A stretch of 64,000 nucleotides of DNA, from NCBI GenBank assembly GCA_024686575.1, contig GCA_024686575.1_4863.1; one strand, 5' to 3'. Shown here piece by piece: positions 12,387-64,000 of this stretch (the first letter of the stretch is position 1; the number at the start of each line of letters is the position of its first letter). This stretch comes from a phage. A program made the position numbers and the translations under genes. The notes below the pieces were generated by a model, which saw only the letters and a list, made by a program, of their open reading frames with translations, had not been told where the DNA came from and searched no databases.

Positions 12387-14165
12387 TTAGCGGCCGATTT
12401 TAGCAATGTCTTCTTCGGTCGGTCTGATGTACGGGTCCAGTTTAGGATTCCGCATCATTACCAAACTTGGGTTGGTCTTCATGTACGGGTTGAGGATGTT
12501 TGCCTTAAACGGTGCCGACTTAGGAATATAGTAGACGTTACCGCATTCCAGATGCGACGCGGATGCGTGCTTAGTACGGTCGTTCAAGTTAACGGTCTTG
12601 CCTCCTTTCTTCGAACGCTTAGCATCGGTTTCGGTTTGACCGATGGCGTGCGTAGACACTGCCAATACCATTGATTCTGTAGAGGCATTGAAGAAACTGA
12701 TACCGCCGTTGCTCGTAATGGTGCGCATCACCAGATTGAGCACGATCTGTTTGTTCAGTGCGTCTCGAATAGACTTCGCCGCTGTCTCTGGAGTCCGATG
12801 TTCCAACTGCCCCAGCTTCCAACGTATTTTCGAGATCGTTGTGGTAAAGCCACGTTGACCCAACAGTAGGTAATCGGTTACCGTGAGACGTTTTCCGTAC
12901 ATAGACGGAATATCATCTTGCTTGGTAAGTCGAGTGCGTACCATCAGCTGCGTGGTATACCAGAGGAAATCAAACATATCCAAATCATCAGGGATGGACG
13001 GATCGTTTGCCATCAGCTCACCACGGAAGGTGCTGTTGACATAGCGTTCACATTCCTGGAAGTGGCTGTCCATACTGCGACTCAGTTCGATATCCGAAGG
13101 CTTCAGTCCGCGAATACTGCGGCCCAACACTTCACGCCAAGACGCTGCAGAGTTGAGGTTTGCAATATCTTCGTCCATTGCCATTTCATTAATCTGTGTA
13201 AACAGCCCCGGTAATGTTGGCGCACGACCGTTCTTACTGTTCTGTTTACCTGCGTAGTAGTGCGCTGCTTTGAAGAATGCGGCAGTCGCTACCAGCAACA
13301 GATGTTCGTTTTGATCCCAACGCCCTGCATCGGTGTTAGGCATATCTTCACGTTTAACCAACAGCACGTACTGGATGGTCTTCGCGAGTTGTGGCTCACC
13401 GGATTGAATCACCACATACTTCGTTAAGTCCACATCACGTACTTTAATCGCTGGCCAAATCGCCACATCAACGCCCGCATAACGCTTCACGGCTTGTTTA
13501 AAGCCATAACGCCCAAAGAGCCAATACATCAGTGGCTTCTCATCTGTGTCGTGTCCAATCTGTCCAGTGGAGACAAACAGATTCGATGTACCCGGCAAGA
13601 ACAGCTGCTCAGGGCGACCATTCACCAGAATCTTCGTTGGTTTCTTACAGAACTTGATAGACACCTTGCGAGTGAAGTCAAAGTTAATAAAGATACCGCC
13701 GTGCTCACGACATATACCAGGTTGATGGATTACAGGTGCTACGTGGTACGTTGTACCATAGTAGTTCATTAAGCCGCCACGACGAATAAACGGCAGGCTC
13801 ATTGGTCGTTGCACCGGGCGAGGATCACCTGGAACTCGGAACGAGGCCATTACCATATACGTGTCAGTGGATGAGATGTTAATAATTGACCGGCCACGAT
13901 TATTTCGTGAATTGTTATCCGACTTCGATAACTTAAAGATAAAAGCTTCAAACGGCGACATTTGGCGACAACCTAATACCGTTAACCCTTCTGGTAATTT
14001 CGGGTTATCGATTTCATCATACGTCAACTCACGACGTAGAATGGTTGCCACACGATCATGTATCCCATCTTTAGCTTGTGTGTACCCAACTCCTTCTGCA
14101 ATTGCACGATTAAAAGGCACTATTTCGCCTGCCTCTTTAATCTTCCTAATCGCATCTTTAAACAC
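12387..14165 (-). CDS. hypothetical protein
   Basis: 592 aa ORF; no recognisable motif by eye. Confidence 0.7.
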   Translation of the reverse strand: MFKDAIRKIKEAGEIVPFNRAIAEGVGYTQAKDGIHDRVATILRRELTYDEIDNPKLPEGLTVLGCRQMSPFEAFIFKLSKSDNNSRNNRGRSIINISSTDTYMVMASFRVPGDPRPVQRPMSLPFIRRGGLMNYYGTTYHVAPVIHQPGICREHGGIFINFDFTRKVSIKFCKKPTKILVNGRPEQLFLPGTSNLFVSTGQIGHDTDEKPLMYWLFGRYGFKQAVKRYAGVDVAIWPAIKVRDVDLTKYVVIQSGEPQLAKTIQYVLLVKREDMPNTDAGRWDQNEHLLLVATAAFFKAAHYYAGKQNSKNGRAPTLPGLFTQINEMAMDEDIANLNSAASWREVLGRSIRGLKPSDIELSRSMDSHFQECERYVNSTFRGELMANDPSIPDDLDMFDFLWYTTQLMVRTRLTKQDDIPSMYGKRLTVTDYLLLGQRGFTTTISKIRWKLGQLEHRTPETAAKSIRDALNKQIVLNLVMRTITSNGGISFFNASTESMVLAVSTHAIGQTETDAKRSKKGGKTVNLNDRTKHASASHLECGNVYYIPKSAPFKANILNPYMKTNPSLVMMRNPKLDPYIRPTEEDIAKIGR

Positions 14166-15220: not shown

Positions 15221-15235
15221 AGATAATATCTATCT
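15221..15235 (-). promoter_or_regulatory. conserved motif 2 (plus AGATAATATCTATCT; inverted repeat AGATA-N5-TATCT)
   Basis: Exact 15-mer present four times in the window; here about 45 nt upstream of the ATG at 15181. Confidence 0.5.
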
Positions 15236-15286: not shown

Positions 15287-15985
15287 TTAGGGTATTAGGC
15301 GTTGGGCTATTTCGCGGAGTTGGTCGCGGGTTAAATCAGCCAACTTCTGGTCGCCGAAGCCCAACTTCAGACCCAGCTCGTACCCAGCTTGCGGATACGT
15401 GTTCGTGTTTGCTACTGAGAGGAGTGCATCGGCTATCTTTACCATCGTTAACTCGAGAGACGCATACGGGGCGGGGATCGGCTGATTCACGATTTGGTAA
15501 TTATAACGCACTGCGGCGTTATCGTAGTCAAACTCCATCCTTCTGCCGAGAACGTTAAACGACTCCGCAGAATAACTACCAAGTGGGTGATTGGCTTTTT
15601 CCCACAAATCTTTCCGTTCAGTAAACCCAGTCGCGAAGTTCTGACGTATGGTGTCGAATATTTGCGTTGCCTGGCTAGGGTGTATATTTTTCAGCTCATT
15701 GTAGTCGTAGTCGGCGATGGAATATAGAGTGAACACAACACCGTTTATATTTAACTGCGGATAATCCATCCGCAGACTGTCATCACCTTGTAAATGAAGT
15801 TCCCACATCCTTACCCACTGCAATATCGCGCTTACCGCATCGTGACTGAGATAAAAATTAGTAGGTTCTTCAGGATTTTCACGGAAGGGAACAGAGCATT
15901 CCGATACAAAAAAGCCGGCTGCCATAAATCCTCTGCCGTCGAACATAGGCGCAACTAATCTTGATTTTTCTAAATTGATTACCAT
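15287..15985 (-). CDS. hypothetical protein
   Basis: 232 aa; AAGGAG Shine-Dalgarno 8 nt upstream of ATG; preceded by the AGATAGATATTATCT motif and the terminator of the upstream gene. Confidence 0.7.
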   Translation of the reverse strand: MVINLEKSRLVAPMFDGRGFMAAGFFVSECSVPFRENPEEPTNFYLSHDAVSAILQWVRMWELHLQGDDSLRMDYPQLNINGVVFTLYSIADYDYNELKNIHPSQATQIFDTIRQNFATGFTERKDLWEKANHPLGSYSAESFNVLGRRMEFDYDNAAVRYNYQIVNQPIPAPYASLELTMVKIADALLSVANTNTYPQAGYELGLKLGFGDQKLADLTRDQLREIAQRLIP

Positions 15986-16025: not shown

Positions 16026-16040
16026 AGATAATATCTATCT
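16026..16040 (-). promoter_or_regulatory. conserved motif 2, copy downstream of the 766 aa gene terminator
   Basis: Exact 15-mer 41 nt upstream of the ATG at 15985, immediately after the terminator U-run. Confidence 0.5.
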
Positions 16041-20561: not shown

Positions 20562-20851
20562 TACGGGCAGTTTATGCGTCCTGCCGAGATCAAAAAAAAT
20601 ACGACGAACTATTTATATGCGTGGAATTACCCGAGTGCTAGAACACTCGGGTATAATTATTCCAGGCAAATATTCCTGTTATCTCTTGTTGAGTATTATC
20701 TCACCTCCTAGTCCTTTAATGGTACGGGTGGAAGTCTGCGGTTGGCGGGTAACCTCTTGCAGACGTTGTTGAAAAGCGACTTGTTTCAGCTGTTGCTGAC
20801 GCAGTTGTTGCATAAAGGTATTCATGTTAACCTCTAGGTGGATGTGAATAA

Positions 20852-27084: not shown

Positions 27085-28561
27085 TATCGGCTCCTCTGAT
27101 GGCTATAATCGTGGTATTAAATTGCGTCAACAGGACACGGCGATAGAACTTCGTGATTTCACCAATCACACTTGGTGGTAACACAGGTTTATCCCACCAC
27201 CAATCCGGGCAATCCCAATCTGGGAATAACCACTCAATAAGCACTTTTGCCGCTTTTGGATAAAGATGCAGTGGCCATAAGTCCATATTACGCCAGTCGT
27301 GTATTGCCGACTCTGTTAAGTAGTACGCTTTCTCGACATGAACTTCACGGTTACGTAGCGAGAAGACGCCGTTTTCCCAATGGTAGAAACGTGGTTCAAT
27401 GATTTGACCGTTCTCGAACAATTCCATACGGATAATGCCCGTCTGACCTGTCGGGTCTATCGTGCGACAGTGCTCGATATAAGGAACCACGTCGGCATTC
27501 CAGACATACGGTAAATCATCGATACTACAAACCTCAGGGTCGATCATGTTTTCTTCACCGAAGGCTACATCGGTGCCGAACACATGCAGAAGCTTTGCTT
27601 TTAGCGGCGAGTGTGTACGTTCGAACTGTTCTGTCGGTGACAGCAGATACGGTAGGCGTAAGAACTGGCGAGATTCATTAATCCACCAAGTGCCGTCGAG
27701 GTTCTTTTGCTGTTGGTGACGTTGCACACCCTCTTCATTACTCACAAACGGTGGGTCTATCTCAGGCCACCATTCATCGGGCAACGGTGTCTGGTTGATG
27801 ATGTACGGGTAGGTAATCACCACCTCTTCGGGTCGCTGATACGAGAAGCGTATAACGAAGCTGGTCTCGTAATGGTTTTCGTCGTTATCCCAGGTAGGAG
27901 AGATAACATCGTAAACCGTCTCGATACGGGTTGGTGCATAACGCACCGCTAAGACATTCTGGCCACCGGCGACATTGCCTGTGGTGAAAACGTCGGGTGT
28001 GAAATGTGCCTTTAGATAGGCTTTAAAGTCATCGTATTTCGGCACACGGGTCCCTGCGGCAATATAGCATTCGTTCAATAGCTTAAGCGCAGGCTTTGGA
28101 ATCAGGTAGTACGCTTCGGATTCCGTCATGGTCGAATAGCGACCCATGTCGATAAGTGAATCCAAGCGGTTTGCCCAACGTAACAATTCGTCACGCGATG
28201 GGCCGACACGCCGTAGCGTGATGGTCACGTTATACATTACGCGGACAGGAGCAGCGCGTACTTGGTCTTCGGGGTTATGGAAGAATGGAATCTCTGCCGC
28301 TAACCCAACTTGACGGTTAATGCGTGCACGTTCATCACGTTCTTCTTCCACTTCGACGTAGACACGGTTCGGTGCTGAATAGTCCACCGGTGTCTCATCG
28401 CCGAGCGTAGAGCCTGGCTGATGGGCGGTGTTGAAGCTATCCGTGAAAACAACACTGGCACGTTCAATACCAGATTCGTTTAGCACACGTTCTACGACGC
28501 CGTCGACCACAGCTTTGCGCATGGTCTTGTCCAACGATGGAATTTCAAAATACTGTTGCAT
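27059..28561 (-). CDS. hypothetical protein
   Basis: 500 aa ORF; GAGGGA Shine-Dalgarno upstream of ATG at 28561. Confidence 0.7.
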   Translation of the reverse strand: MQQYFEIPSLDKTMRKAVVDGVVERVLNESGIERASVVFTDSFNTAHQPGSTLGDETPVDYSAPNRVYVEVEEERDERARINRQVGLAAEIPFFHNPEDQVRAAPVRVMYNVTITLRRVGPSRDELLRWANRLDSLIDMGRYSTMTESEAYYLIPKPALKLLNECYIAAGTRVPKYDDFKAYLKAHFTPDVFTTGNVAGGQNVLAVRYAPTRIETVYDVISPTWDNDENHYETSFVIRFSYQRPEEVVITYPYIINQTPLPDEWWPEIDPPFVSNEEGVQRHQQQKNLDGTWWINESRQFLRLPYLLSPTEQFERTHSPLKAKLLHVFGTDVAFGEENMIDPEVCSIDDLPYVWNADVVPYIEHCRTIDPTGQTGIIRMELFENGQIIEPRFYHWENGVFSLRNREVHVEKAYYLTESAIHDWRNMDLWPLHLYPKAAKVLIEWLFPDWDCPDWWWDKPVLPPSVIGEITKFYRRVLLTQFNTTIIAIRGADNAQGEQEG

Positions 28562-28599: not shown

Positions 28600-28630
28600 C
28601 GCAAAAAAAAGAAAGGGAGCCGAAACTCCC
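28600..28630 (-). terminator. rho-independent terminator
   Basis: Stem GGGAG/CTCCC with CCGAAA loop, followed on minus strand by TTTCTTTTTTTT. Confidence 0.65.
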
Positions 28631-28638
28631 TTCGTGTT

Positions 28639-46998: not shown

Positions 46999-48297
46999 TT
47001 AGGTGATGTGGAATTTAGGGATGTACTCTTTAACCACGGTTTCACGACCGTGCATCGCACCCATTGCAGTGGTCATAACGTTCGAGAAGCCGGATGAGAT
47101 ATCCGCAGCGATTGCCCGTGGCTCTTCTGCTTTGTGTGCAGAGGCGCACGCCGCACAACAGTCTACGTGACCTTGCTGACATAAGATGGGTCGGCGGAGT
47201 CGAACAACTTTACCGAATTGCGTTTTCAAATACTCTTCGGTGAGTTGGGTAACTTTACCGTTAATCATCGCGTTCATGCCAACATAACGCTTGTAGTTAT
47301 ACTGGTTAATTACAAGTGCATGAGTCAGTTTTGTCCCGCAATCTCCAGGCACGATTTTGTGGTTCTGGAAGATCATCTGGATGATACGTACCTGCTCACC
47401 ACCCTTAGCGGTTTCTGCACCACGCATGAAGGAACCTTCACGAGTGTCATTGAACTTCTCTACCAGGTACTTCATCCCGGTCTGATCAACTTCCATCAGA
47501 CTCGTTGGGATTAAGGTAAAATCTGCACCTTCTTTAAAAGCGGTCTGAATACCATACATCAGCATCAGCTTACGGCGACGCATACGCGCTTTAGGCGAGC
47601 TGTAGAACTCAACGGACTGGTCGCCACTCAACCACTCTTTATCAAGTTCGTCGAGAGCTTTTTCAATCATAACGATAACCGCAGGGTTATCCAGTTCGTC
47701 TTTGTGCTTCAACAGCAACGCATCACGTACCTTATACGCGTCAGGATGCGTTGTAAGGCTTCTAATTGTTCCTGTTGGGGCAATCCCACGACACAACGGA
47801 GCAAGCTCGTGTAGACCCCCTACAAAGCGTCCTATCATGTATGGCCGAATCGCGTCTTCGTTGTCTGGATCGGTGTCATCGTATTCCACACATCGTTCGT
47901 ACATCTCCTTACGGTAGGCTAGCGGGTCACGGGACTCTGCCAGATACGGGAGACGGGTACCGAATGCGTAATAGATAGCAATCCAGTTAAAGACATAGCG
48001 ACCCACGGTAGTCGGAATGGGACCAGCTAGACCTGGGTACATCTCAGGACGCAATTCAAACTGCTCTTCCGGCACGAACAGCTCTTCATCTTTTTTGCAC
48101 CCTTCAATCGGCACCCATTTAATTTCTTCGTTTTCCCAGTAGTGGGGCAAGCCGTCAATGTAGTTCAGGTCGTATTGCTCAGGTGGCTCACCTTTTTCAT
48201 TAAAGATTGCCACGTTGAAAACCGCAATACGCCACACCAGTCTACGCCAAGCTTCTGCTTTACACGCAGCGACCAGATAATCAATCTTGTTCATCAT
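46999..48297 (-). CDS. hypothetical protein with C-terminal cysteine cluster
   Basis: 432 aa ORF; C-terminal HVDCCAACASAH cluster; no confident family assignment. Confidence 0.7.
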   Translation of the reverse strand: MMNKIDYLVAACKAEAWRRLVWRIAVFNVAIFNEKGEPPEQYDLNYIDGLPHYWENEEIKWVPIEGCKKDEELFVPEEQFELRPEMYPGLAGPIPTTVGRYVFNWIAIYYAFGTRLPYLAESRDPLAYRKEMYERCVEYDDTDPDNEDAIRPYMIGRFVGGLHELAPLCRGIAPTGTIRSLTTHPDAYKVRDALLLKHKDELDNPAVIVMIEKALDELDKEWLSGDQSVEFYSSPKARMRRRKLMLMYGIQTAFKEGADFTLIPTSLMEVDQTGMKYLVEKFNDTREGSFMRGAETAKGGEQVRIIQMIFQNHKIVPGDCGTKLTHALVINQYNYKRYVGMNAMINGKVTQLTEEYLKTQFGKVVRLRRPILCQQGHVDCCAACASAHKAEEPRAIAADISSGFSNVMTTAMGAMHGRETVVKEYIPKFHIT

Positions 48298-52278: not shown

Positions 52279-52662
52279 TTAACTTGCATCGTGTGGAACA
52301 GTCACCCAATCGTGCCATTTTTCAGAGTAAAGACGATAAGCCATCTTTGGATTCTGATCGACACTACCGGCCGGGTTCTCATTCCACAACACGTACGTAT
52401 ATAACTCGTACGACGAAGTGTTACGGATACTTGACGTGCGGGTGACGTAGTACGTCAACCCGCGTTGGTTAAGGAACAGGCCGCTGTAATGTTCAGTGAC
52501 CATGTAGTAGTGAAACGCCTGGTTGATAGTGGCGTCGGTACAGAGTTTCTTAGCGACGTCTTCTACGCCGGGATACGCCTTTAGAATGTTTTCGAGAAAA
52601 CTTGCTAAAGTCATTCCGATGTAGGGTGGCAGCGGCTCTGCTGGACGCGGCGGAGTGAGCAT
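52279..52662 (-). CDS. hypothetical protein
   Basis: 127 aa ORF with AAGGAA Shine-Dalgarno before ATG at 52662; overlaps the 3-prime end of the helicase ORF by about 113 nt in another frame. Confidence 0.5.
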   Translation of the reverse strand: MLTPPRPAEPLPPYIGMTLASFLENILKAYPGVEDVAKKLCTDATINQAFHYYMVTEHYSGLFLNQRGLTYYVTRTSSIRNTSSYELYTYVLWNENPAGSVDQNPKMAYRLYSEKWHDWVTVPHDAS

Positions 52663-55294
52663 GTGATTTCCTTACAACGTAGGGGGATGTCGCAATACGG
52701 AACGACAATACGACATCCTTGAGTGATTTCTGACGGGCATTCAGGTAATTGCAATGCTTCGGTACGTTATACGCATGGAATAACCACACCGTTGGGTCTA
52801 TTTCACCCCATTCGTTGTGGAGAATCTTACGTGGACGACCGGCCATCTGTTCGTTCAGTTGCTGGTCTTCTACCGGGGTTGAGATGTACATGTGTACCAA
52901 CCCAGGTTTATCGACCGCAGTCCCCGCTTTCCCCGGTGTGGAGATAGAGAAGTCTGCTTGGATAAAGTCGTCATACGAATCGCCTGCATTATATTTCGCC
53001 ACCATCAGTGGATGGAATACAGGGTCACGCGATAACTTATCTTTCACATACTCGGTAAAGAACTCACACATCGCTACCGTAGCAAAGAGTATCAAACATT
53101 TTTGGCCAGGCTGATACCGTTTAAGAAACGATTTCTCAACCACATCCCAGATCATGTTTGCGTATTCTAAATGCAAGTTCTCTTTAATCAGCTTCCCTTC
53201 GAAGAGCTTGTGGTTATACGGCGTCATCTTCGACGCCCACCACGCAAACTTCTTATCATCCAGTCGATAGTACAACGCCTTCACGTCAACCACCGGAATG
53301 ATTGGAATACTGATTCGGTACTCCATTGGGAAACGTTCTAAATACCGCTCCGCGATAAAGGCTTTACTGCTACCCGGCTTAAGAGTTGCAGACATCTCTA
53401 TCGATGCCGGCGGATTCAACATTATACCAGCCATGTAAACGAGGTGAAAATGCTCGTGCACCTCATCCATCGCCACCAGACCCACACCCAGAACATCATA
53501 AAACGTATCCAGGTCCACAGGGTTAGTCGCAGCAGTGTTAATGTACTCCTTCAGGAAACGCTGTAGAGAGACCGTGGGGAGGATTATTACCTTAATACCA
53601 CGACTATCTAGCTCTCCCGACTTACCCATCTCCAGTGCGTCGTAAATCGCCTGTACGCCTGTACAAACTAACACCTCGTCACGAAGTATACGAAGTCCTG
53701 TTTCATCATCACAGACGTCAAACAGCCATTTGGGAACGTACGACGGACGGTGAATCAATGCGGTACGGGTTCCCCGTTTAACCATCGACTTCATACAGGT
53801 CTTGGTGTTGTGCGTAACAATCCACTGTCCCAGAACGTACAGATGTTCATCGTTGTCGACAGTAATGCACGAACCATGACTCTTCCCAACATACACGATA
53901 GACTTAACACGGAGTTTCAGTGTATCGTTGTATTGACCGTTGTCGCGACACAGCGCTTTCTTACGCGGGAGGTTGAACAGCATTGAAGGTGTCTTGTGCC
54001 TAATGAACACCATATAAGCCAATTTACCTTCTCTACGTTCTCCTTTGTAAGTAAAGAACGGACGTTTTGTGGATATAGTTGCAATACCACCTAACGATCT
54101 CACCAACTCCTGGACGCCCAACGCCAGCGACTCGCTGGTGCTACAATACGACGGCTGCCCTCCATCTTTATTCACGGTTCCGTCCGTGTCCATTAAACCG
54201 CGCAGCAGCTCCCAGCGTTGCTCAATCGAGCCTTCAAAATATTCATCCGGAATATATTTTCTATCAGACCCTTTCCCTAGAAGACCGTGGTCCTGCAAAT
54301 AGAGCGGCCAGGACATCGGCACTTCACGTCTGCGACGACGCATTCTATACTGATAACGATCGGCGGGAACCATCTCGGTATCGTCAGGTAAATACTTCCT
54401 CACCAGCTCGACAGTTTCTGGATCGGCTGATGTGAAGCCTACCGCGCCATTTTCACAGGCGTGGCCGTTTCCCAAGAATGCCCCCATGAGATACGGATGT
54501 ATTTTAAAGCACTTTTCACTTGTCTCTTCCGGTTCAGGTAACGGAATGTAGACTCGCGGGTTCGGCATTGCAATCAGTCGCTGAATTTCTTCCGTACTTC
54601 TTACCTGCCACCGAGTGTTTGGTGTGGTATTGACGTAGTAGGATTGCCAGAGATGCTCTTTACCGACCACAGTCTTACGTCCGTCAGCAAAAGTTATCTC
54701 GTAAAAATCCCAATCTTCATGCGGGTACACCGCCGTCACATTCGTCGGCTTCCCATCCCTACCGATTACCACATCCCCGACTTCTAGCTCTCCATGTAAT
54801 TTCCACCCACCAGGAATCCTTACACGCTGATCCCATCTACAGACCTTTCCTCTTCCTGTTTGTATCGCGAAAACCGTTTGTGAACGCGATGGATCTGTTG
54901 CGGCGGCTACGACTTCATTCTGATAATAGAAACGCGACTCTGGGTCTGTTTCTTCCATCTTGAATCCGTAATTATCAAACGTGCACTTATAAGGTTCTGC
55001 ACGTTCAGGATGGTGCTCTGTTAGCTTGTACTGAAAAGCGTATTCAATTGCTGCTCGTTGGAGGATATGTTTAATCTTCTCAGCGAACACTTTATGGAAA
55101 ATGAACGTCCTTAAAGACGGAATGTGAGCGTAGTACGCGTCACCGCGTTCCGTAGTTATTCGTCCATGTTGCTTGCCCATCTTTGGGGCGTGCATATTCT
55201 CTTCGGCCCACGCGAGTATGGCCCTTTCAGCCTGGCGGATAGGGACTTCAACCCGTACCCCCATACTCGTGTAAGTCATTTGAATTTCTACCAT
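52550..55294 (-). CDS. DExH-box (SF2-type) helicase/ATPase interrupted by an intein
   Basis: 914 aa from ATG at 55294 (GAGG Shine-Dalgarno; track N-terminal extension rejected); Walker-A-like AIQTGRGKV, motif II AMDEVHEH, motif III SAT; about 345 aa intein inserted after GRGKV. Confidence 0.75.
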   Translation of the reverse strand: MVEIQMTYTSMGVRVEVPIRQAERAILAWAEENMHAPKMGKQHGRITTERGDAYYAHIPSLRTFIFHKVFAEKIKHILQRAAIEYAFQYKLTEHHPERAEPYKCTFDNYGFKMEETDPESRFYYQNEVVAAATDPSRSQTVFAIQTGRGKVCRWDQRVRIPGGWKLHGELEVGDVVIGRDGKPTNVTAVYPHEDWDFYEITFADGRKTVVGKEHLWQSYYVNTTPNTRWQVRSTEEIQRLIAMPNPRVYIPLPEPEETSEKCFKIHPYLMGAFLGNGHACENGAVGFTSADPETVELVRKYLPDDTEMVPADRYQYRMRRRRREVPMSWPLYLQDHGLLGKGSDRKYIPDEYFEGSIEQRWELLRGLMDTDGTVNKDGGQPSYCSTSESLALGVQELVRSLGGIATISTKRPFFTYKGERREGKLAYMVFIRHKTPSMLFNLPRKKALCRDNGQYNDTLKLRVKSIVYVGKSHGSCITVDNDEHLYVLGQWIVTHNTKTCMKSMVKRGTRTALIHRPSYVPKWLFDVCDDETGLRILRDEVLVCTGVQAIYDALEMGKSGELDSRGIKVIILPTVSLQRFLKEYINTAATNPVDLDTFYDVLGVGLVAMDEVHEHFHLVYMAGIMLNPPASIEMSATLKPGSSKAFIAERYLERFPMEYRISIPIIPVVDVKALYYRLDDKKFAWWASKMTPYNHKLFEGKLIKENLHLEYANMIWDVVEKSFLKRYQPGQKCLILFATVAMCEFFTEYVKDKLSRDPVFHPLMVAKYNAGDSYDDFIQADFSISTPGKAGTAVDKPGLVHMYISTPVEDQQLNEQMAGRPRKILHNEWGEIDPTVWLFHAYNVPKHCNYLNARQKSLKDVVLSFRIATSPYVVRKSHAHSAASSRAAATLHRNDFSKFSRKHSKGVSRRRRRR
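53807..54841 (-). mobile_element. intein with LAGLIDADG homing-endonuclease domain
   Basis: Starts with Cys after the P-loop and ends VLGQWIVTHN followed by Thr; LAGLIDADG-like motifs YLMGAFLGNGHA and LLRGLMDTDGTV; in frame within the helicase ORF. Confidence 0.7.
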
Positions 55295-55340: not shown

Positions 55341-57446
55341 TTACAACTCAATTACCACAGCGGCTCCTAGGTCATCGTACAACGATGCCGGGATTTTGTA
55401 CTCGGTATAAAAACCAACGCGATCGATATTCCCCTGCTGTCCTTCAAACAACAACATCGGAATTGCCGAGCGCAAACTAATGAGCGTGTTGTGATCGACA
55501 AACCGTTTCCCTGTAGCGTTAGTAGAATCCTCACTGTCAAATCCTACTGCCGGGAACGGATTGGTTGGCGACTCTACACGAGATATCGCCAACATAATCG
55601 CAATGTGCGTCATCGGTATACCACTCAGCTTACGCTGGATATACTTAAACGTGTCCATCAACGCATAAGTACACTGTTTCTCTGTAGCACCACCCATTTC
55701 AACCAACGTCACCGGTTTCACACGACCTTGTTTCTTGTTCAGCTTCACAGTCGAGGCTGTGTTGATGATTTCCACAATGTCTTCGTTCTTATCGGCAGCA
55801 ATCGAACGGAGCTTGGTTTCTAAGCCGGCTACGAACTCCGCCATCGATTCAGAACGGTTGGTGTAGACCAGGACCGGGTGTTTCGGGTTCCATCCTTTTA
55901 AGGGGATTTCTACCGTCTTCTTCTCGATACGAATGTTCGCTCGTTGTTTCAAGAAGTAGTGCAGGAACGGTTTAGAGAAGTTCCCACAAACACCCATTCG
56001 CACATCGATAGAATCCGCAGCGATTATCTGCCCATCTTCTAAACGACGTTGGAAAGTTAAGTCGGTGATTTCTGGTAATGCCGTTTCATCAATTGCATCG
56101 AGATCTTCATGATACGCAATCTGGCTCAGCTCCGAATAAACTTTGTCGGTAACAACCAACTCGTATTCTGACCAATTCCCACGCTGTGGTTTTGGCAGCA
56201 AGCACAACCCTTTCAGAGAGTTATGTTTGTATTCGGTCATATACTCACGCATACGTGGGGTGAGTACCAGGTTGAGCAGATAACGCAAGAAGTCAAGGTG
56301 CTTGGTAGAGAGAATTCCCTGTGTACCCTTTTCCGAGATGGACGTGGATGCCAGGTGACCTGGTGACGTACCTTCAGAGAGGTTATAAATCAAATCCCCC
56401 ATACAGGTCGCACAGATGGACTGATTCGCCATCTCTTTACAGGTCATGGCACTACGGAAGACCAGCGGTTTGCCAACCAGGTCTGCGTATCCGCCTTTCT
56501 CAAATCGCAACCACGGACCATTATCGCCTTCTAAACGATAACGCATCCCCACCATCGCTTTATAGGCACGCTCATCCAGCTGCGTATCCTTAAACGTGTA
56601 GCGGTGTGCGTGTGTTGTACCGCAGTCGTCGTACGTGAAATACATCAGTACGTTTGCTGCCAGCTGCAGTTTACGTGAGGCGTATTCTGCTTCGGCAATC
56701 TTGTCAGTGTTGTACAGGTGGGAACGTGAAGTTGCACCAGATTCTTTCAAACGCGAAATAACCGAATGCATTCCGGTAAAGAAGCCTTCCCACACCTGAT
56801 TGGTGTATACACGTGAGTCAATTTCTGACGTTTTGCCGCGCACGAACGCTTGCAGTACCTGGTTCATCTTCACGGTACCGTCCAGTACCGACATTACGAC
56901 TGGGTTATACCGCAGCGCAGGGTCTTTGAAGATTTTCTCGATAAGCTTATACGCTTCTTCAACCATATCCTGACCATCTTCATCGTAGCCAGTAGGATAC
57001 TGCACTTCCCACTGACGGATGAGTTCGAAGTTCGGGTGGTCGTAGATCTCCATCATCGTATCAAAGTCGATTGTCGTACAATAGGACAGCAAGTTCTTCA
57101 CTGTCATGTTGAACGCATCGGCGTAGACATGTTGACTCAGGATATAACGCGTTTCAGCAAGGTCGACACCTGCTTTACGGGCCAGTACCGCTGCTTCCGA
57201 CATAAAGTCCAGATGCAGGTCATCTGTTGCTACCTGACCTGGACGATACGCCATGGTCGATGGAGTGGGCACCTGCGGATACAGACGCGACACACCCCAA
57301 TACGGCCAGCTGAGTTTGATGTGGCGACTAGACATTTCCAACGACTTACCATCGTCGAAAGTCACGTAATAACGCCCGCGTAGTTTCCACACCTGATCAG
57401 AGTTAAGCATACGCAAATCACGTACGTGTACAGAACGACCCGCCAT
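55341..57446 (-). CDS. multisubunit RNA polymerase beta-prime-like subunit, C-terminal part
   Basis: 701 aa; ASTSISEKGTQGILSTKH matches the beta-prime trigger-loop signature AAQSIGEPGTQLTMRTFH; preceded by a Cys cluster (C-x8-C-x2-C) as in the C-terminal Zn site of beta-prime. Confidence 0.7.
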   Translation of the reverse strand: MAGRSVHVRDLRMLNSDQVWKLRGRYYVTFDDGKSLEMSSRHIKLSWPYWGVSRLYPQVPTPSTMAYRPGQVATDDLHLDFMSEAAVLARKAGVDLAETRYILSQHVYADAFNMTVKNLLSYCTTIDFDTMMEIYDHPNFELIRQWEVQYPTGYDEDGQDMVEEAYKLIEKIFKDPALRYNPVVMSVLDGTVKMNQVLQAFVRGKTSEIDSRVYTNQVWEGFFTGMHSVISRLKESGATSRSHLYNTDKIAEAEYASRKLQLAANVLMYFTYDDCGTTHAHRYTFKDTQLDERAYKAMVGMRYRLEGDNGPWLRFEKGGYADLVGKPLVFRSAMTCKEMANQSICATCMGDLIYNLSEGTSPGHLASTSISEKGTQGILSTKHLDFLRYLLNLVLTPRMREYMTEYKHNSLKGLCLLPKPQRGNWSEYELVVTDKVYSELSQIAYHEDLDAIDETALPEITDLTFQRRLEDGQIIAADSIDVRMGVCGNFSKPFLHYFLKQRANIRIEKKTVEIPLKGWNPKHPVLVYTNRSESMAEFVAGLETKLRSIAADKNEDIVEIINTASTVKLNKKQGRVKPVTLVEMGGATEKQCTYALMDTFKYIQRKLSGIPMTHIAIMLAISRVESPTNPFPAVGFDSEDSTNATGKRFVDHNTLISLRSAIPMLLFEGQQGNIDRVGFYTEYKIPASLYDDLGAAVVIEL

Positions 57447-59683
57447 TATTTATCCTCCCGAATTGGACGCACTAATTCAAAACCTTCACAGCGATGGATG
57501 TTACGTATCATCCTGTCAATCTGCGAATCACCCATTGGCAGTTTCTTACGATCGACCAGCACCCCTGGATTGGTTGGTGTTGGCGAGTTATACAGCCCCG
57601 TTACGATCGCACGGTGTACCGCAGGGTTATTAGCGCGGTCATGAGTTTCGGGGAAGTTGCCCGGACCAAAGCCGTCGGTAAGACGCTGCTCGGAAGGACC
57701 ACCCCACTTCAACCCTTTCAGGTTAATCGGATATGAACCACGTCCTTGGTTGGATGCATCAATACAACCCAAATAGTTCGTGTACATCGACGAGATACTG
57801 GAGAACTCACGACCGGTTTTATCCAGGCGCAGAGTCTCTACCATGCCGACGTAAAACTGGTTCTTCGTCCACTCTTTCTCACCCTGATAGTTAGTAATCA
57901 GTAGCTTAGACTTGCGTGGTGCATACTCGCCTAGAGCACGGCAGATTTCTACCTGGGTAGCATTCAATTCGTGGGGAAGCCAGATACGAATCGTGAAGTC
58001 GTAAATCTCTTTAAAGAGTTCCAGACGTGACCCAGTATCCGGGTGACTGGCATTGAGATAGAATGTCCAGCGTGGGTTATAGCGATCGATATAGTCCATC
58101 AGGATTTCCCAGGCTTCATCAACCTGGTTGGCGGCAAGTAAAGGTTTCAACCGCATCTTCAACTGCTCGGATGCAGCAGACCAATACATGTGGAACAGCG
58201 CAGCATAAGTCGAACGACGAATTACGGCGTTCATGGAACGAATGACATGCACACGTTCTCCGAACTCGTTAATCGGCATTTCTTCATCAGGCCGCACTGC
58301 GCCCACGATACCTTTTGTACCTGAACGGTCGGTGATTTTCGATGAGACGGTAACTGGGATTGGATAACGTACCACGATGCGTATCGTGTAACTACCAATT
58401 GGGTCCCAGAGACCACGCTGAACCGGCTGCGCCAGTTTGTTTAACACGTTCTTATCAGCAGAACGGTTATACTCGCCTTTACGCATGGCTTCATCGTATT
58501 CACGACCAATCTCTTCACGGAAGTCGTTATAGACTTCATACGTCTCAGAACAGAACGCCTTGTCAAGAATCTCAAACGCTTTCGGTGACCAGACGATATT
58601 CTTGTCCTTGGACATCGCAAAATAGAACCGTACGATATCATTGTAAAAACGTTTCAAAGCGTTCGCGTAGTGATCTAACTCGCGTTTGTTCTCTTCGGTA
58701 CATGCGATATTGTTAACACCACGATCGCATTTGGTTTCGTCCCGCCATACCTGAATATCAACGACACGAGAACCGGTACGTTCCATCTTTTCAAAGTCGC
58801 CAGCCAGTCGCGCTTTGTAATGCTCAGGGTCGGCATCAACATACTCACAACGGTCGAAGTGCGGAGAGACATGTTGTGTTTCACCTACGTGCGAGTCAAT
58901 GGCTGCCCATAGCTTATCGAAACGGCGCGCGGCAATAACCAACCCATCATCACGAATTGCCTGTCCTTTATTGGGCAGGTACTGTGGTCGACGAACGCCA
59001 TCAATACCCGTTGTCCCATACGTATCAAGCAGGTACTCGTCGTCGCGCAAGGTAAAGTCGATTGCACGCAAACCATAAGCGTGCATCGCTTTCGCTGCAG
59101 TTTCGGAGATGGTGTACGAGTCCTCGATAATGTCCGGGTGCGACATCGTCACGGTGTGCAGGTTGACCCCATCGACAAACTCACCGTCTTTCTGTGCCGG
59201 CAGCACGGTAAGCATTTCATCTTTTTCCAGGTGCTGCGTCTGCCCGCGCAGCAACGCCTGAAGTTTCCCAGTAGCCTCTTTCTTAGACGAGAAAATGTTA
59301 TCGTGGTTGGTGTAATACTTAATATCGATTACATCAATCATCACTTTGCGCTGGTTGGTTAAATCTGCGCGCGTGAAGAAGATAACATGTTGGAGCGGTT
59401 CGTGATCCCCTTCACGACCATAGCGTGCAAAAACAGCTGCACGAGTAACACCTTCTTTGGTTGTGTAACTGCACACGGTACCACTGTCTTCCACGATATC
59501 GTTAAAACAATAATCGTGGTAGTTCACATCAGCGCCGGTAAAATGGATAGTCGGATCTGGATTGTCCAGTGGTACCGCCGACTTCATATGTCCACCCACC
59601 ATTGAGGCACGTGCCCCAGATACGCCAGTGATATTCACCTCACGGTCAGCAACGCTTGACATGAGTTCGACTGGTGTTTTCAT
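57446..59683 (-). CDS. multisubunit RNA polymerase beta-like subunit, C-terminal part
   Basis: 745 aa; ITDRSGTKGIVGAVRPDEEMP matches the beta signature [20 protein letters not shown]; C-terminal GGPSEQRLTDGFG resembles GGQRFGEMEVWA; stop overlaps the start of the beta-prime-like gene. Confidence 0.7.
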   Translation of the reverse strand: MKTPVELMSSVADREVNITGVSGARASMVGGHMKSAVPLDNPDPTIHFTGADVNYHDYCFNDIVEDSGTVCSYTTKEGVTRAAVFARYGREGDHEPLQHVIFFTRADLTNQRKVMIDVIDIKYYTNHDNIFSSKKEATGKLQALLRGQTQHLEKDEMLTVLPAQKDGEFVDGVNLHTVTMSHPDIIEDSYTISETAAKAMHAYGLRAIDFTLRDDEYLLDTYGTTGIDGVRRPQYLPNKGQAIRDDGLVIAARRFDKLWAAIDSHVGETQHVSPHFDRCEYVDADPEHYKARLAGDFEKMERTGSRVVDIQVWRDETKCDRGVNNIACTEENKRELDHYANALKRFYNDIVRFYFAMSKDKNIVWSPKAFEILDKAFCSETYEVYNDFREEIGREYDEAMRKGEYNRSADKNVLNKLAQPVQRGLWDPIGSYTIRIVVRYPIPVTVSSKITDRSGTKGIVGAVRPDEEMPINEFGERVHVIRSMNAVIRRSTYAALFHMYWSAASEQLKMRLKPLLAANQVDEAWEILMDYIDRYNPRWTFYLNASHPDTGSRLELFKEIYDFTIRIWLPHELNATQVEICRALGEYAPRKSKLLITNYQGEKEWTKNQFYVGMVETLRLDKTGREFSSISSMYTNYLGCIDASNQGRGSYPINLKGLKWGGPSEQRLTDGFGPGNFPETHDRANNPAVHRAIVTGLYNSPTPTNPGVLVDRKKLPMGDSQIDRMIRNIHRCEGFELVRPIREDK

Positions 59684-59713
59684 TCGTAAATGCTCCTTTT
59701 GGTTACCTCGGTA

Positions 59714-59728
59714 AGATAATATCTATCT
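59714..59728. promoter_or_regulatory. conserved motif 2 in divergent intergenic region
   Basis: Exact 15-mer between the RNAP beta-like gene start (59683) and the plus gene start (59750); could serve either or both. Confidence 0.5.
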
Positions 59729-59749: not shown

Positions 59750-60073
59750 ATGCTAGATAAATTTGCTACCTTATCCGAAATAATACCTTCGCCTGATTCG
59801 ACCAAGTATAAGGTGTTGCATGACTATACAGACTTCCTTCGCAAACACCCAGATACTACAGAAGAAGTTGTTGACCCAAAATATGCCTACCCAGAGGTAC
59901 ACAGTTTCTACGCGTACTGTCGTCTCAAACAGTACGATAATAGTATTATTTATCCGATGATGTTAATGAACGGAATTTCTACTCCGTTCGATTTCACGCC
60001 AGAGATAAGAACCTTATTGGTTCCTAGTGTCGGTGTGGTAAGTAACATCTTATCGACTATCGTAGAATCTTGA
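59750..60073 (+). CDS. hypothetical protein
   Basis: 107 aa ORF; AAGGAGAG Shine-Dalgarno; the AGATAATATCTATCT motif lies 21 nt upstream; bidirectional terminator after stop. Confidence 0.65.
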   Translation: MLDKFATLSEIIPSPDSTKYKVLHDYTDFLRKHPDTTEEVVDPKYAYPEVHSFYAYCRLKQYDNSIIYPMMLMNGISTPFDFTPEIRTLLVPSVGVVSNILSTIVES

Positions 60074-60105
60074 AAAAAAGAAGGGACGCCCAGTCCCTTC
60101 TTTCT
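60072..60105. terminator. bidirectional terminator
   Basis: Stem GAAGGGAC/GTCCCTTC with A-run upstream and short T-run downstream, between convergent genes. Confidence 0.65.
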
Positions 60106-60110
60106 AACGC

Positions 60111-61478
60111 TTAACGTAAATTAGCTGATGAGAATGGTAGGTTGCCTAAACTGCTGCTACTTCCGCCACCTAAACCACCCAGACCACCTAACACGTCACT
60201 ACTCCCTCCTAAGAGGTTGGTGCTACCGCCGCCCAACTGCGTGCTACCCCCCAAGAGATTATTACTACTTCCCAGCAAACCAGAACCCAGACCACTTTCT
60301 TTCGTCACCGCATTACCACGCAGCGCTTCACCGAGAGACAGTTCTTTAATTGTCCCTTTCGGTAAATGGCCGTTGTTCTCACGCAGCGCTTCCTGAATCT
60401 TCGGTGCTAACGCATTGAAGCTATTAGCCGAAGACGCCTGTTGCGCTTTCTTCGCACGGAAATAGTTTACCGGATCATTGAGATCAAGATTTTCCTGCGG
60501 AGCTTGTTGAGAAGCTAAAGCAACGACCGGCTTTGTGCCGGCAGGTGTACGCCCGATACGGAAATCTGTTGCGGTGGTGTCTGTTGCCTGATCGTTACGT
60601 GGGCCGGTATTATACGGCAGAGTTTGGATAACGTTATCATAAACGCTCATGTTATCCAGTTGGCCAATCCATTCTTCTTCTAACGGACGCAGTGGAGTGT
60701 GGTCACGCAGACCACGAACCACTTGATTGTAGTTGGTCACGTATTGTGCCCAACCGCGTGCCAAAGAACCGAAGTACGGACGCGGATCGTTAGAACCAGT
60801 AACCGAAGGATACCAACCAAACACTGCAGTTAGCAGGTTAAAGATAATGACCTTATCCTGCTTACGCTGGAGCTTGGCACCGAAGAATGTTGCCGTACCA
60901 TCCAGTGACTCTTCTTCAAACATGTGTTTGTAGTTCGCCACGCGGATATATTTGATACCCTCAATGGTCATATCGCTGGAGATGAAGATACTGGTGATCT
61001 TTGTCTTTTTATCTTCTTCCAGCAAACCGTAAACATAGTTCTTCACCGCTTGCCAGCTCTGAACCAGTTTCTTATCCATCGTCGGATCTTTCAGGTCAGC
61101 ACAAACCACATCGCTTAAAAACTTCTTGTAAGCTGCCAGACGGATATTCTTTCCTTCGGCTGCTGTTTCCAAAATAGCATCGATTAGCTCGAAGCTTTTC
61201 AGGAAGAGGTTCGCGTTGATGGCTTTCTTCAGGAAGCGAATCGTTCCAGATTCGCCAGCCAGTACCGATTCACACAGTGGGTGGAACGCATGACACTCAC
61301 TACCTTCATCGTCTTCCAACCCACGCTTAATCATCGCTGCAGTTGGAAGCACCAAGCGGCGCTTCACTTTGTTGTAGGTGAACATTGCTGGATGACCATC
61401 ATCGATAGTCAGCATGTCACCTTCGAATCCGTATCCGAGAGAGGTCAGAAACGAACGGTAGAATTCAATCAATTTCAT
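60111..61478 (-). CDS. hypothetical protein with Gly/Leu/Ser-rich C-terminal tail
   Basis: 455 aa; C-terminus LGSGLLGSSNNLLGGSTQLGGGSTNLLGGSSDVLGGLGGLGGGSSSSLG; terminator downstream. Confidence 0.7.
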   Translation of the reverse strand: MKLIEFYRSFLTSLGYGFEGDMLTIDDGHPAMFTYNKVKRRLVLPTAAMIKRGLEDDEGSECHAFHPLCESVLAGESGTIRFLKKAINANLFLKSFELIDAILETAAEGKNIRLAAYKKFLSDVVCADLKDPTMDKKLVQSWQAVKNYVYGLLEEDKKTKITSIFISSDMTIEGIKYIRVANYKHMFEEESLDGTATFFGAKLQRKQDKVIIFNLLTAVFGWYPSVTGSNDPRPYFGSLARGWAQYVTNYNQVVRGLRDHTPLRPLEEEWIGQLDNMSVYDNVIQTLPYNTGPRNDQATDTTATDFRIGRTPAGTKPVVALASQQAPQENLDLNDPVNYFRAKKAQQASSANSFNALAPKIQEALRENNGHLPKGTIKELSLGEALRGNAVTKESGLGSGLLGSSNNLLGGSTQLGGGSTNLLGGSSDVLGGLGGLGGGSSSSLGNLPFSSANLR

Positions 61479-61490
61479 GGTTAATAATCC

Positions 61491-63191
61491 TTAATCAATG
61501 AGACCGTTGCCGAGTCCGTTTCCGCCTATACCGCCTAAGCCACCACCCAGGTCAAGACCTCCAAGAGGATCTAAGCCACCTGTGTTAGTTGGAATGTTAG
61601 ATAGCATTCGACCCCGGCCTTGGCCTTTCTCGAATTCTGTATAACCTTCTTCCACGGCTTTCAGCAGCGTTGCAGTGTTCTGTGCCAGCTCACCAACGTA
61701 TTTGAGATCGGTGGTGTTGCCGGTATGGAGACGGAATTGCATAAACGACGCGTAGGTGTAATATTCCAGCGGTTCGTCGTCGACACGGATTTCAATACGA
61801 GTAACGGTCCCCAACAATGCGGTGACCAGCATGTGACAGCGAATATGGTTATGTTTAGTAACCTGAACCATCGCTTCTTTCATGTTCTGCAAGAAACGAC
61901 GACCTAATGCAGCAGGTAACTGATGATGTGTGATGCTGCTGACTGAGTTAGGAATAACTTCCAACGTAGGCTCTATCATGATATCCGTGTTACGGTTATC
62001 AAAGACAAAGCTCACTTCGCCAATCAGGTTACGTGACATAATCGGCCCGATAGACATAGCCAGATCATACGCAACTAGACTACCCTGAGTAGAAAAGCCG
62101 TTACGTCCAATCCAGTGGTCGGTTTGGTTAACCAGCCCTGCACCCAACCCACGGCGACTTGCCAGCGCCAGCGATTCACGGATACATTCATCCAACCGCA
62201 TTGGGTTGACAATCGCATTACGCAAATCAGCCAAACGGAACGTCGCCTTACTGGTTGCTTTCCAACCGCCAGATACATCAGACATCCCGTTCTGGAGTGC
62301 TTGACGCATCGCAGCAATCAGTTCGTGGTTGCTGTAGTTACGGATAACACCACGCTGCTTCAATTCAGATTCAACGCCGATGGAGTTATTACCTGCAAAG
62401 AAGCTTTCCACGCTACCGAGTTCGGTATCTACCCCAGAGCTTGCCAGATACGCATTACTGATTGCAGATACGTAGTTTTCCGGACGCTGGAGTTGGGATA
62501 CCATCAACTGTGGTGCAGAGCTACTGGTTGCGGATAGCACAGAGTCGCTCGTTGGAACGAACTTCTCACCGCTATTCATTTCAATACGTTTTACCATATC
62601 CGCTGCTTTCGCGATCGAAATGATATCTACCGTACTTTCTGTTTGACCTTCAACAGACAGCGCTTTCGATAAAACGTAGTTATCCAGTAGACGGAATGAG
62701 TCTGGGTTCAATGTTTTGCCGCCCAGGGCATCGTGTGTATACGTTGCCTGTAAGCCGTAGATGTCGTTAATGTACAACACCATATCGTCCGGCAGCAGGC
62801 TACCCAGGCTGGTTTCTGCCTGACTGGTATAACCGGAGACGATGTATTGCGTTTCCTGAGTGCGTGTTGCATTCAGAGGTTTAGCAATAAACACCGCCAC
62901 GAAGTTAAAGATACCGGTATCACGTGATTCCCATTGGAACTGTACAGGACGATTGTCATCATCGGACACGTTGATGAATGGACGCTCAAAACCGTTCTGG
63001 GTGCCATCGAAGCCCACGATGGCAGATAATGCTTCTTGATACTGCTGTGTTCCCACAGCTTTTTCCCCGCCCAGTTCAACCGCTGCTGCTAAGTCATCCA
63101 GTGCACCCGTCGATGCGTTAAAGCCGATGCGGCGACGAACTTGCTCTGGAACATCGTAGACCGGATACATCAGTAGATTTACAAGCTGCAT
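61491..63191 (-). CDS. hypothetical protein with Gly/Leu-rich C-terminal tail
   Basis: 566 aa; AAGGAG Shine-Dalgarno 9 nt upstream; C-terminus GGLDPLGGLDLGGGLGGIGGNGLGNGLID. Confidence 0.7.
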   Translation of the reverse strand: MQLVNLLMYPVYDVPEQVRRRIGFNASTGALDDLAAAVELGGEKAVGTQQYQEALSAIVGFDGTQNGFERPFINVSDDDNRPVQFQWESRDTGIFNFVAVFIAKPLNATRTQETQYIVSGYTSQAETSLGSLLPDDMVLYINDIYGLQATYTHDALGGKTLNPDSFRLLDNYVLSKALSVEGQTESTVDIISIAKAADMVKRIEMNSGEKFVPTSDSVLSATSSSAPQLMVSQLQRPENYVSAISNAYLASSGVDTELGSVESFFAGNNSIGVESELKQRGVIRNYSNHELIAAMRQALQNGMSDVSGGWKATSKATFRLADLRNAIVNPMRLDECIRESLALASRRGLGAGLVNQTDHWIGRNGFSTQGSLVAYDLAMSIGPIMSRNLIGEVSFVFDNRNTDIMIEPTLEVIPNSVSSITHHQLPAALGRRFLQNMKEAMVQVTKHNHIRCHMLVTALLGTVTRIEIRVDDEPLEYYTYASFMQFRLHTGNTTDLKYVGELAQNTATLLKAVEEGYTEFEKGQGRGRMLSNIPTNTGGLDPLGGLDLGGGLGGIGGNGLGNGLID

Positions 63192-63203: not shown

Positions 63204-64000
63204 TTAAGAATTAAACCATTCAACTTCTTCTAACTTGCGACGTGCATTCAACACCATAAACTCCGCCAGGCTATTGTGCAGTGACAAGTGAGGTATATAG
63301 TTTGGCTGATCCGTCTCACACTTCAGCAGCGCAGCTGCTTCTGGTGTAGCCCTGAGATGGAACAGATACGGGTTGATGTGATCCTTGTGTAACAAGGTCA
63401 GTGATTCCCGTGGTGTAGATTGCGGTTCGAGATTACGCGGGTTGCGATACTCCTGAAGATAATATCTATCTAAATCTGCTTTGAGTTCAGATCGAATTGG
63501 GTCGGCTGCATAACCGGCAGACATCTCAGAACGCACCATATTGCAACTTAACAGTTGCGCAACGTCATACATTCCATAATTGAGATAAGTTGCCTGTGCT
63601 AACGCCATGCCGTAGCGAAACGCTTCTGGTCCACATTCGGTATACGTCTTATAATGCGCGCTACGATGGAGTGCTAATGCGACTAACCATTCGTGGAGCG
63701 TATAGACAGGACCGTCGTGTGTTGCCAGTTGCGAATCAATCAATAACTTAACATCTGCTGGAGCGGCATTATCCAGGCGCATTGTTTTCAAGAAAGAGCG
63801 GTATTCTTTAAATACGTACTCGGTACGGACGTATTCTTTCATCTGGGCAGGAGAACGTGCCTGCACCAAATCCATGGCGTTTATCTTACCCTTTTCGCCA
63901 TTGAATATCACACTTTCTGGATGCGCTTTTAACAGCACCGGCTGGTTAGAGATTTTGTTTGCAAAACCTGTTTCAATCTCTTGTTTAACCAGAAAATACA
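63204..64000 (-). CDS. hypothetical protein, 5-prime partial (continues beyond window end)
   Basis: Track ORF starts at a GTG at 63938, but the frame stays open to the window end; contains an internal copy of the AGATAGATATTATCT motif. Confidence 0.55.
   Translation of the reverse strand, partial: YFLVKQEIETGFANKISNQPVLLKAHPESVIFNGEKGKINAMDLVQARSPAQMKEYVRTEYVFKEYRSFLKTMRLDNAAPADVKLLIDSQLATHDGPVYTLHEWLVALALHRSAHYKTYTECGPEAFRYGMALAQATYLNYGMYDVAQLLSCNMVRSEMSAGYAADPIRSELKADLDRYYLQEYRNPRNLEPQSTPRESLTLLHKDHINPYLFHLRATPEAAALLKCETDQPNYIPHLSLHNSLAEFMVLNARRKLEEVEWFNS
63457..63471 (-). promoter_or_regulatory. conserved motif 2, intragenic copy
   Basis: Exact 15-mer inside the coding sequence of 63204-64000 (encodes DRYYL), about 270 nt upstream of the next gene start at 63191. 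Confidence 0.35.

Follow-up and report, generated by a model that had tools for sequence, protein, structure and literature searches.

Here, we describe two adjacent genes in a 64,000-nt stretch of phage DNA (GenBank assembly GCA_024686575.1, contig GCA_024686575.1_4863.1; the whole stretch is called the window below). They occupy positions 55341-59683 on the minus strand and almost certainly encode the C-terminal beta (beta-C) and C-terminal beta' (beta'-C) polypeptides of a non-virion RNA polymerase (nvRNAP), that of an SPN3US-like, phiKZ-related Salmonella jumbo phage. A preliminary description, made from the sequence, had read the two open reading frames (ORFs), of 745 and 701 amino acids (aa), as split C-terminal halves of a phiKZ-like multisubunit RNA polymerase (RNAP). 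Both ORFs were recovered on the minus strand exactly where it had placed them, and its reading held in all its elements and can be refined to the non-virion enzyme. The features of the pair are as follows, the last two being readings of the sequence itself.

57446-59683, minus strand: gene for the nvRNAP beta-like C-terminal subunit (ORF of 745 aa), orthologue of SPN3US gp34, of the phiKZ gp71-73 type, corresponding approximately to E. coli RpoB 657-1342.
55341-57446, minus strand: gene for the nvRNAP beta'-like C-terminal subunit (ORF of 701 aa), orthologue of SPN3US gp35, of the phiKZ gp74 type.
57446-57458, minus strand: translational-coupling junction between the two genes.
59693-59698, minus strand: AAGGAG Shine-Dalgarno sequence, 9 nt upstream of the beta-C ATG (59683).

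The source of the window is an SPN3US-like Salmonella jumbo phage (Seoulvirus), with 98.5-98.7% DNA identity over 55341-59683. In a megablast search, 31 phage records cover at least 80% of this interval, and the top records are Salmonella phage SaP7 (98.7%), SEGD1, Proteus phage 7, JN03 and SPN3US (98.5%), all of them Seoulvirus jumbo phages of ~240 kb. At the protein level, two substitutions (I272V and Q293L) separate the 745 aa protein from SPN3US gp34, and a single one (R159Q) separates the 701 aa protein from gp35. The corresponding SPN3US genes are labelled 'putative DNA-directed RNA polymerase beta subunit 2' (SPN3US_0034) and 'beta' subunit' (SPN3US_0035).

The beta-C protein matches the PHROG 3295 family ('RNA polymerase beta subunit') over its full length (E 3.6e-268). 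When solved structures were searched by sequence, phiKZ gp71-73 (7OGP chain C) aligned in two stretches, residues 22-354 and 427-737 (phmmer, E 2.4e-29), AR9 nvRNAP beta-C (7S00 chain C) matched at E 1.9e-8, and many bacterial beta subunits matched at E ~0.01 over the GxxGxKG...MP region. With 24.3 bits, the protein exceeds the gathering score of Pfam Rpb2 domain 6 (23.4 bits). The GRHGNKG...EDMP-type signature that had first drawn attention to this ORF is ITDRSGTKGIVGAVRPDEEMP, residues 450-470. For both proteins, homologues were collected (48 and 42 clusters) and aligned (32 and 36 sequences, from 100% to 21% identity); K449 and K457 of beta-C, which lie within SKITDRSGTKG, are invariant in 36 aligned sequences, down to 21% identity, and align with the phiKZ lysines in 'fKmtdfhggKg' of gp71-73. 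A hidden Markov model (HMM) of the beta-C family aligns with E. coli RpoB at 657-843 (E 1e-6) and 1033-1241 (E 3e-19), so that the protein, starting at about residue 657 of 1342, sets in shortly before the conserved 'DDANRALMGANMQRQAVP' region and represents the C-terminal half of beta. The AlphaFold2 model of beta-C (mean predicted local distance difference test score, pLDDT, 82.1) retrieved 8QUE_C first in a Foldseek search of the PDB (E 3.5e-42; template-modelling score, TM-score, 0.64-0.68), with TM-scores to gp71-73 chains of 0.64-0.79, then AR9 7S00_C (E 4.6e-32) and next E. coli and Pseudomonas beta (~1e-23); all matches were RNAP chains.

The beta'-C protein likewise matches a single family over its full length, PHROG 3015 ('RNA polymerase beta subunit', E 5.8e-241), and its sole match among solved structures by phmmer, spanning residues 8-548, is phiKZ gp74 (7OGP chain D; E 8.8e-39). 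The two beta' signatures noted earlier were located here: the C-x8-C-x2-C cluster (CKEMANQSICATC) spans residues 336-348 and the trigger-loop signature (ASTSISEKGTQGILSTKH) residues 366-383. C275, C336, C345 and C348, forming the zinc site, and Q376 and H383 of the trigger loop are invariant across 32 aligned homologues, down to 21% identity, and the four cysteines align with C288, C341, C350 and C353 of phiKZ gp74. In the phiKZ enzyme, gp74 has its bridge helix at 242-279, a zinc site formed by C288/C341/C350/C353 and a trigger helix at 365-383, and the lysines of gp71-73 are K386 and K394 (PMC8287921). From the gp74 alignment, the bridge helix of the 701 aa protein is placed at approximately residues 229-266; the model has low pLDDT in this region (200-246), yet the sequence aligns. 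A long helix covers 362-393 in the AlphaFold2 model (mean pLDDT 76.7), which in Foldseek retrieved 8QUE_D first (E 9.9e-32), AR9 7S01_D (E 3.4e-16) and next Thermus and E. coli beta' (~1e-9), with RNAP chains again the only matches. The beta'-C family HMM aligns with E. coli RpoC 715-936 (E 3e-12), and the protein continues beyond this region as the C-terminal half of beta'. In this alignment, DCGT falls on C814, the C-x8-C-x2-C cluster on C888, C895 and C898, and the trigger-loop signature on AAQSIGEPGTQLTMRTFH, ending at H936. The invariant serine S380 sits opposite E. coli R933, and it is a serine in phiKZ too.

No result contradicts the identification, but some results for beta'-C limit it. 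Pfam Rpb1 domain 5 stays below threshold (17 vs 28.5 bits), bacterial beta' was not reached directly from the 701 aa protein by phmmer against solved structures, and the TM-scores of its model are low (0.3-0.5). What ties the protein to cellular beta' is therefore a combination of the phiKZ and AR9 structures, the family profile and the Foldseek search; low TM-scores are no surprise for an elongated multidomain chain when its partners are missing from the model. Of the domain profiles proposed in the preliminary description, Rpb2 domain 6 is just above its gathering score and Rpb1 domain 5 below, and the high divergence from bacterial enzymes that it had noted is borne out, with identities of 11-15%. 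These marginal or sub-threshold Pfam scores confirm, at the level of sequence, a strong divergence from the cellular enzymes.

The same low identity to bacterial enzymes (measured in fold alignments) and the same marginal Pfam scores could be taken to mean that the ORFs are decayed, catalytically dead RNAP relics, or that their short motifs are chance matches. We give this next to no credence. The ORFs are intact and full length, and they are conserved in more than 40 clusters of homologues with identities as low as 21-24%; the lysines of the catalytic cleft, the zinc cysteines and the histidine of the trigger loop do not vary; the two genes show translational coupling; and in vitro activity is established for the homologous enzyme of phiKZ (PMC8287921). 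All the motifs align column for column with their counterparts in phiKZ gp71-73/gp74, AR9 beta, RpoB and RpoC, and are thus not coincidental. As far as sequence and fold can show, the homology, the invariant residues, the Foldseek matches and the profile mapping onto RpoB and RpoC refute the relic or chance-match explanation.

The beta-C and beta'-C genes belong specifically to the non-virion enzyme and not to the virion RNAP (vRNAP). The latter is represented elsewhere in the window:

46999-48297, minus strand: C-terminal piece of vRNAP beta', homologue of SPN3US gp42 (PHROG 2962, E 4.4e-175).

With this gene and the nvRNAP genes, the window holds parts of both phage RNA polymerases. Both enzymes consist of split beta/beta' homologues, and the two beta' pieces cross-match weakly (the 46999-48297 piece against the PHROG of the 701 aa protein, E 3.3e-7; the 701 aa protein against PHROG 2962, E 1.7e-6), as would suit a pair encoding subunits of the virion-packaged vRNAP, which transcribes early genes. 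We nonetheless consider such an assignment very improbable. The phiKZ nvRNAP chains and their PHROGs outscore all other matches by many orders of magnitude, and the gene order is that of phiKZ gp68-gp75. Virion proteomics identified the SPN3US vRNAP as gp42, gp218, gp240, gp241 and gp244, and the same work named gp35 the nvRNAP beta' subunit, its C terminus keeping beta' regions a17-a20, and gp77 the N-terminal fragment of nvRNAP beta (PMC5105663). By implication, gp34 and gp35 would be absent from purified virions. Furthermore, vRNAP beta' is in three pieces, and there the a17-a20 region, still part of the 701 aa protein in the nvRNAP, forms a protein of its own (gp244). The gene pair is not orthologous to the vRNAP families of either phage (gp178/gp149/gp180/gp80 in phiKZ; gp241/gp218/gp240/gp42/gp244 in SPN3US).

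The preliminary description had also noted that the N-terminal halves, including the NADFDGD motif, are lacking from the pair and might be found elsewhere in the genome. For beta, this holds within the window, and the sigma-like subunit is encoded there in part:

12387-14165, minus strand: gene for the nvRNAP beta-like N-terminal subunit (592 aa), orthologue of SPN3US gp77, of the phiKZ gp123 type; the missing N-terminal half of beta.
63204-64000, minus strand: gene for the sigma-like fifth nvRNAP subunit, truncated where the window ends and present as its 3' part only (C-terminal 264 aa), orthologue of SPN3US gp30, of the phiKZ gp68 type.

The beta N-terminal (beta-N) gene lies 43 kb from beta-C in the same window, and its product matches 7OGP chain E (PHIKZ123) at E 3e-20 and PHROG 2943 at E 7.9e-188; neither it nor the vRNAP beta' piece has a Pfam match. 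For the sigma-like subunit, phiKZ gp68 (E 5e-183), SPN3US gp30 (E 4.5e-158) and the partial ORF of the window (E 1.3e-73, profile positions 254-508) all match PHROG 3209. Direct BLASTP of phiKZ gp68 against the partial ORF gives only E 0.16, so the sigma-like assignment rests on the shared PHROG profile and on gene order. All six reading frames of the 64 kb window are free of a D.DGD motif; the NADFDGD-bearing N-terminal part of beta' (beta'-N) is therefore not encoded there. SPN3US gp23 and phiKZ gp55, both beta'-N, share PHROG 2987, and by collinearity the gp23-type gene would lie ~5.4 kb past its right-hand end. Of the five nvRNAP genes, four are thus named within the window.

Gene order around the pair mirrors phiKZ gp68-gp69-gp70-gp71/73-gp74-gp75. 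Between the sigma-like gene and the pair, the ORF at 61491-63191 (minus strand) shares PHROG 3141 with phiKZ gp69 (pairwise BLASTP finds no similarity, E 2.4), and the ORF at 60111-61478 (minus strand) shares PHROG 3520 with phiKZ gp70 (BLASTP E 5e-13). Both proteins have glycine-rich C-terminal tails with GGL/GGS repeats. Sequence searches of the PDB with the products of 61491-63191, 60111-61478 and 46999-48297 gave no meaningful match and no RNAP. We take phiKZ gp69 to be the nuclear import factor Imp1/PicA; if this role is true, the nvRNAP genes adjoin a phage-nucleus import gene, as in phiKZ. Just downstream of beta'-C, the helicase-like gene at 52550-55294 (minus strand) is a homologue of SPN3US gp36 and phiKZ gp75 (PHROG 16). 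This gene holds an intein-like insertion of ~346 aa (~53668-54912), absent from SPN3US, with a Pfam LAGLIDADG_3 match (E 1e-9) and weak Hom_end and Hint matches. The insertion interrupts helicase motif I (TGRGK | VCRW...VTHN | TKT), its apparent N-terminal junction being V-C and not a clean Cys start. Related helicase insertions in JN03, SPLA3, SPLA5c, EC001 and Lh1B have just 81-84% DNA identity, and no record covers at least 80% of the query.

The two genes of the pair are tightly joined. The stop codon of beta-C (TAA, 57448-57446) and the start codon of beta'-C (ATG, 57446-57444) share one base (TAATG), and a GGAGGA Shine-Dalgarno sequence for beta'-C lies at 57458-57453, 6 nt upstream; this is a typical translational-coupling arrangement. 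Plus-strand ORFs of 80-177 aa within both genes were treated as antisense artefacts of the long minus-strand genes. Further upstream, a GC-rich hairpin with a T-run (GAAAGAAGGGACTGGGCGTCCCTTCTTTTTTT) at 60072-60100, between the convergent gp32-like gene and a small plus-strand gene, is likely a bidirectional intrinsic terminator.

These observations, together with work on related phages, allow us to propose how the pair would function. The beta-C and beta'-C genes, translationally coupled via TAATG, would be co-transcribed, and their products would join a five-subunit enzyme lacking alpha and omega, comprising beta-C, beta'-C, beta-N (12387-14165), beta'-N (SPN3US gp23, with the DFDGD magnesium site) and the sigma-like subunit (63204-64000). 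Within it, beta-C supplies one double-psi beta-barrel (DPBB) with two lysines of the catalytic cleft, and beta'-C contributes the bridge helix, the zinc site with its four cysteines, the trigger loop and the clamp region at the C terminus. If phiKZ is a guide, the pair would be transcribed early by injected virion RNAP, probably starting from AGATAGATATTATCT 30 nt upstream. Once assembled, the enzyme would transcribe late (possibly also middle) phage genes in the phage nucleus without the need for host RNAP, and we infer from phiKZ and AR9 work that the sigma-like subunit would confer promoter recognition.

The candidate start site belongs to a recurring motif, of which two copies concern nvRNAP genes in the window:

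59714-59728, minus strand: promoter-like 15-mer AGATAGATATTATCT, with its end 30 nt upstream of the beta-C ATG.
15221-15235, minus strand: promoter-like 15-mer upstream of the operon of the gp76 homologue and beta-N.

The copy at 59714-59728 sits in a 66-bp AT-rich intergenic region between beta-C and a divergent small gene (59750-60073). In the window, there are four exact copies and two with two mismatches (AGATATATATTACCT), all six on the minus strand. The scan returned 7 matches vs 0.89 expected, a number reached in none of 100 shuffles; the seventh match, with three mismatches, is on the plus strand and overlaps the copy at 15221. Of the six minus-strand copies, five precede a start codon by 30-70 nt, and a hairpin and T-run often come just before the copy. 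SPN3US has the motif, in exact form or with 1-2 mismatches, ahead of gp30 (sigma-like), gp22-gp23 (beta'-N) and gp76-gp77 (beta-N) as well, and with the copy ahead of the pair, every nvRNAP gene is thus in an operon behind the motif.

RNAP-bearing jumbo phages have a conserved AT-rich motif of ~10 nt near -10 of their early promoters (PMC7598289), and the injected vRNAP transcribes the nvRNAP genes, which belong to the early class (PMC8287921; PMC13282480). Because of these two points, we tentatively propose, with somewhat less than even confidence, that AGATAGATATTATCT and its variant AGATATATATTACCT are the virion-RNAP early promoter of Seoulvirus phages, marking every nvRNAP operon. One exact copy counts against this proposal, as it lies at 63457-63471 (minus strand) inside the sigma-like coding region (..DRYYL..), ~265 nt upstream of the start of the gp69-like gene (63191). 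This internal copy is conserved in SPN3US (28117-28131) and may drive separate expression of the gp69-like and gp70-like genes. A published description of the AGATAGATATTATCT motif was not found, and a literature search with TATATTAC, taken as a phiKZ early-promoter core, returned nothing relevant; we claim no link to the phiKZ promoter consensus.

Two copies of the 15-mer (15221-15235 and 16026-16040) flank an ORF at 15287-15985 (minus strand, 232 aa; PHROG 15414, unknown function), which has no Pfam match and is absent from SPN3US, where the same two copies are just 198 bp apart. This arrangement, downstream of the major capsid gene, resembles the insertion of a small gene cassette between promoters that had been duplicated.

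The identification of the pair is correct yet already known, since the genes are annotated in SPN3US and the structure has been solved for phiKZ. Annotation of the genes in SPN3US dates from 2011, in 2016 Thomas et al. already placed gp35 in the SPN3US nvRNAP, and structures of the orthologous enzyme followed in 2021-2025. Our analysis adds nothing new to the biology; its main value is as a positive control for spotting highly divergent RNAP subunits from short catalytic motifs. Split, host-independent multisubunit RNAPs are a hallmark of phiKZ-related nucleus-forming jumbo phages and explain their rifampicin-insensitive transcription, and the identification marks the window as part of such a phage.

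Among known systems, SPN3US gp34/gp35 are the closest, and SEGD1, SaP7, JN03, Proteus phage 7 and others also have the same genes in the same position, with the same lengths, one-base overlap and upstream motif. Relative to SPN3US, the pair itself shows point substitutions only, whereas its surroundings differ by the helicase insertion, one extra gene and two small deletions. The latter comprise ~270 bp missing near the small genes gp71/gp72 and ~630 bp missing including gp60, with sites at ~20653-20677 and ~28624-28638. In records of Salmonella SPFM phages, several 'hypothetical proteins' have very high HMMER scores against these RNAP proteins, yet BLASTP aligns just 3-9% of the query, which suggests that the SPFM records hold frameshifted or otherwise corrupted gene models.

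The phiKZ nvRNAP subunits gp71-73 and gp74 (PDB 7OGP, 7OGR, 8QUE and 9RJS) are orthologous to the pair. They share the split architecture, the DPBB lysines, the bridge helix, the four-cysteine zinc site and the trigger helix, as well as the neighbourhood, with gp68-, gp69- and gp70-like genes upstream and a helicase downstream, at just ~20-25% identity. The phiKZ beta-C gene is interrupted, with gp71 and gp73 as separate coding sequences flanking gp72, and introns and a homing nuclease have been marked in the phiKZ beta-C genes by Thomas et al. (PMC5105663); in the window, by contrast, beta-C is one uninterrupted ORF of 745 aa. Also unlike phiKZ, the window has the small opposite-strand gene 59750-60073 between the gp70-like gene and beta-C. 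The beta-C and beta'-C of the AR9 nvRNAP (PDB 7S00, 7S01, 7UM0 and 7UM1) are more distant (12-16% identity); this enzyme shares the split beta/beta' and a fifth, promoter-specificity subunit. AR9 has uracil-containing DNA, its late promoters are recognised through template-strand uracils, and it forms no nucleus (PMC7598289). Bacterial RpoB and RpoC share with the pair the GxxGxKG lysine motif of beta, and the bridge helix, zinc cysteines (E. coli C814, C888, C895 and C898) and trigger loop to H936 of beta'. Unlike in bacterial RNAP, each subunit is split into two genes, identity is 11-15%, and Ser380 stands opposite E. coli R933; the phiKZ-type nvRNAP further differs from the bacterial enzyme in being without alpha or omega and in having its sigma-like protein as an integral subunit (PMC8287921).

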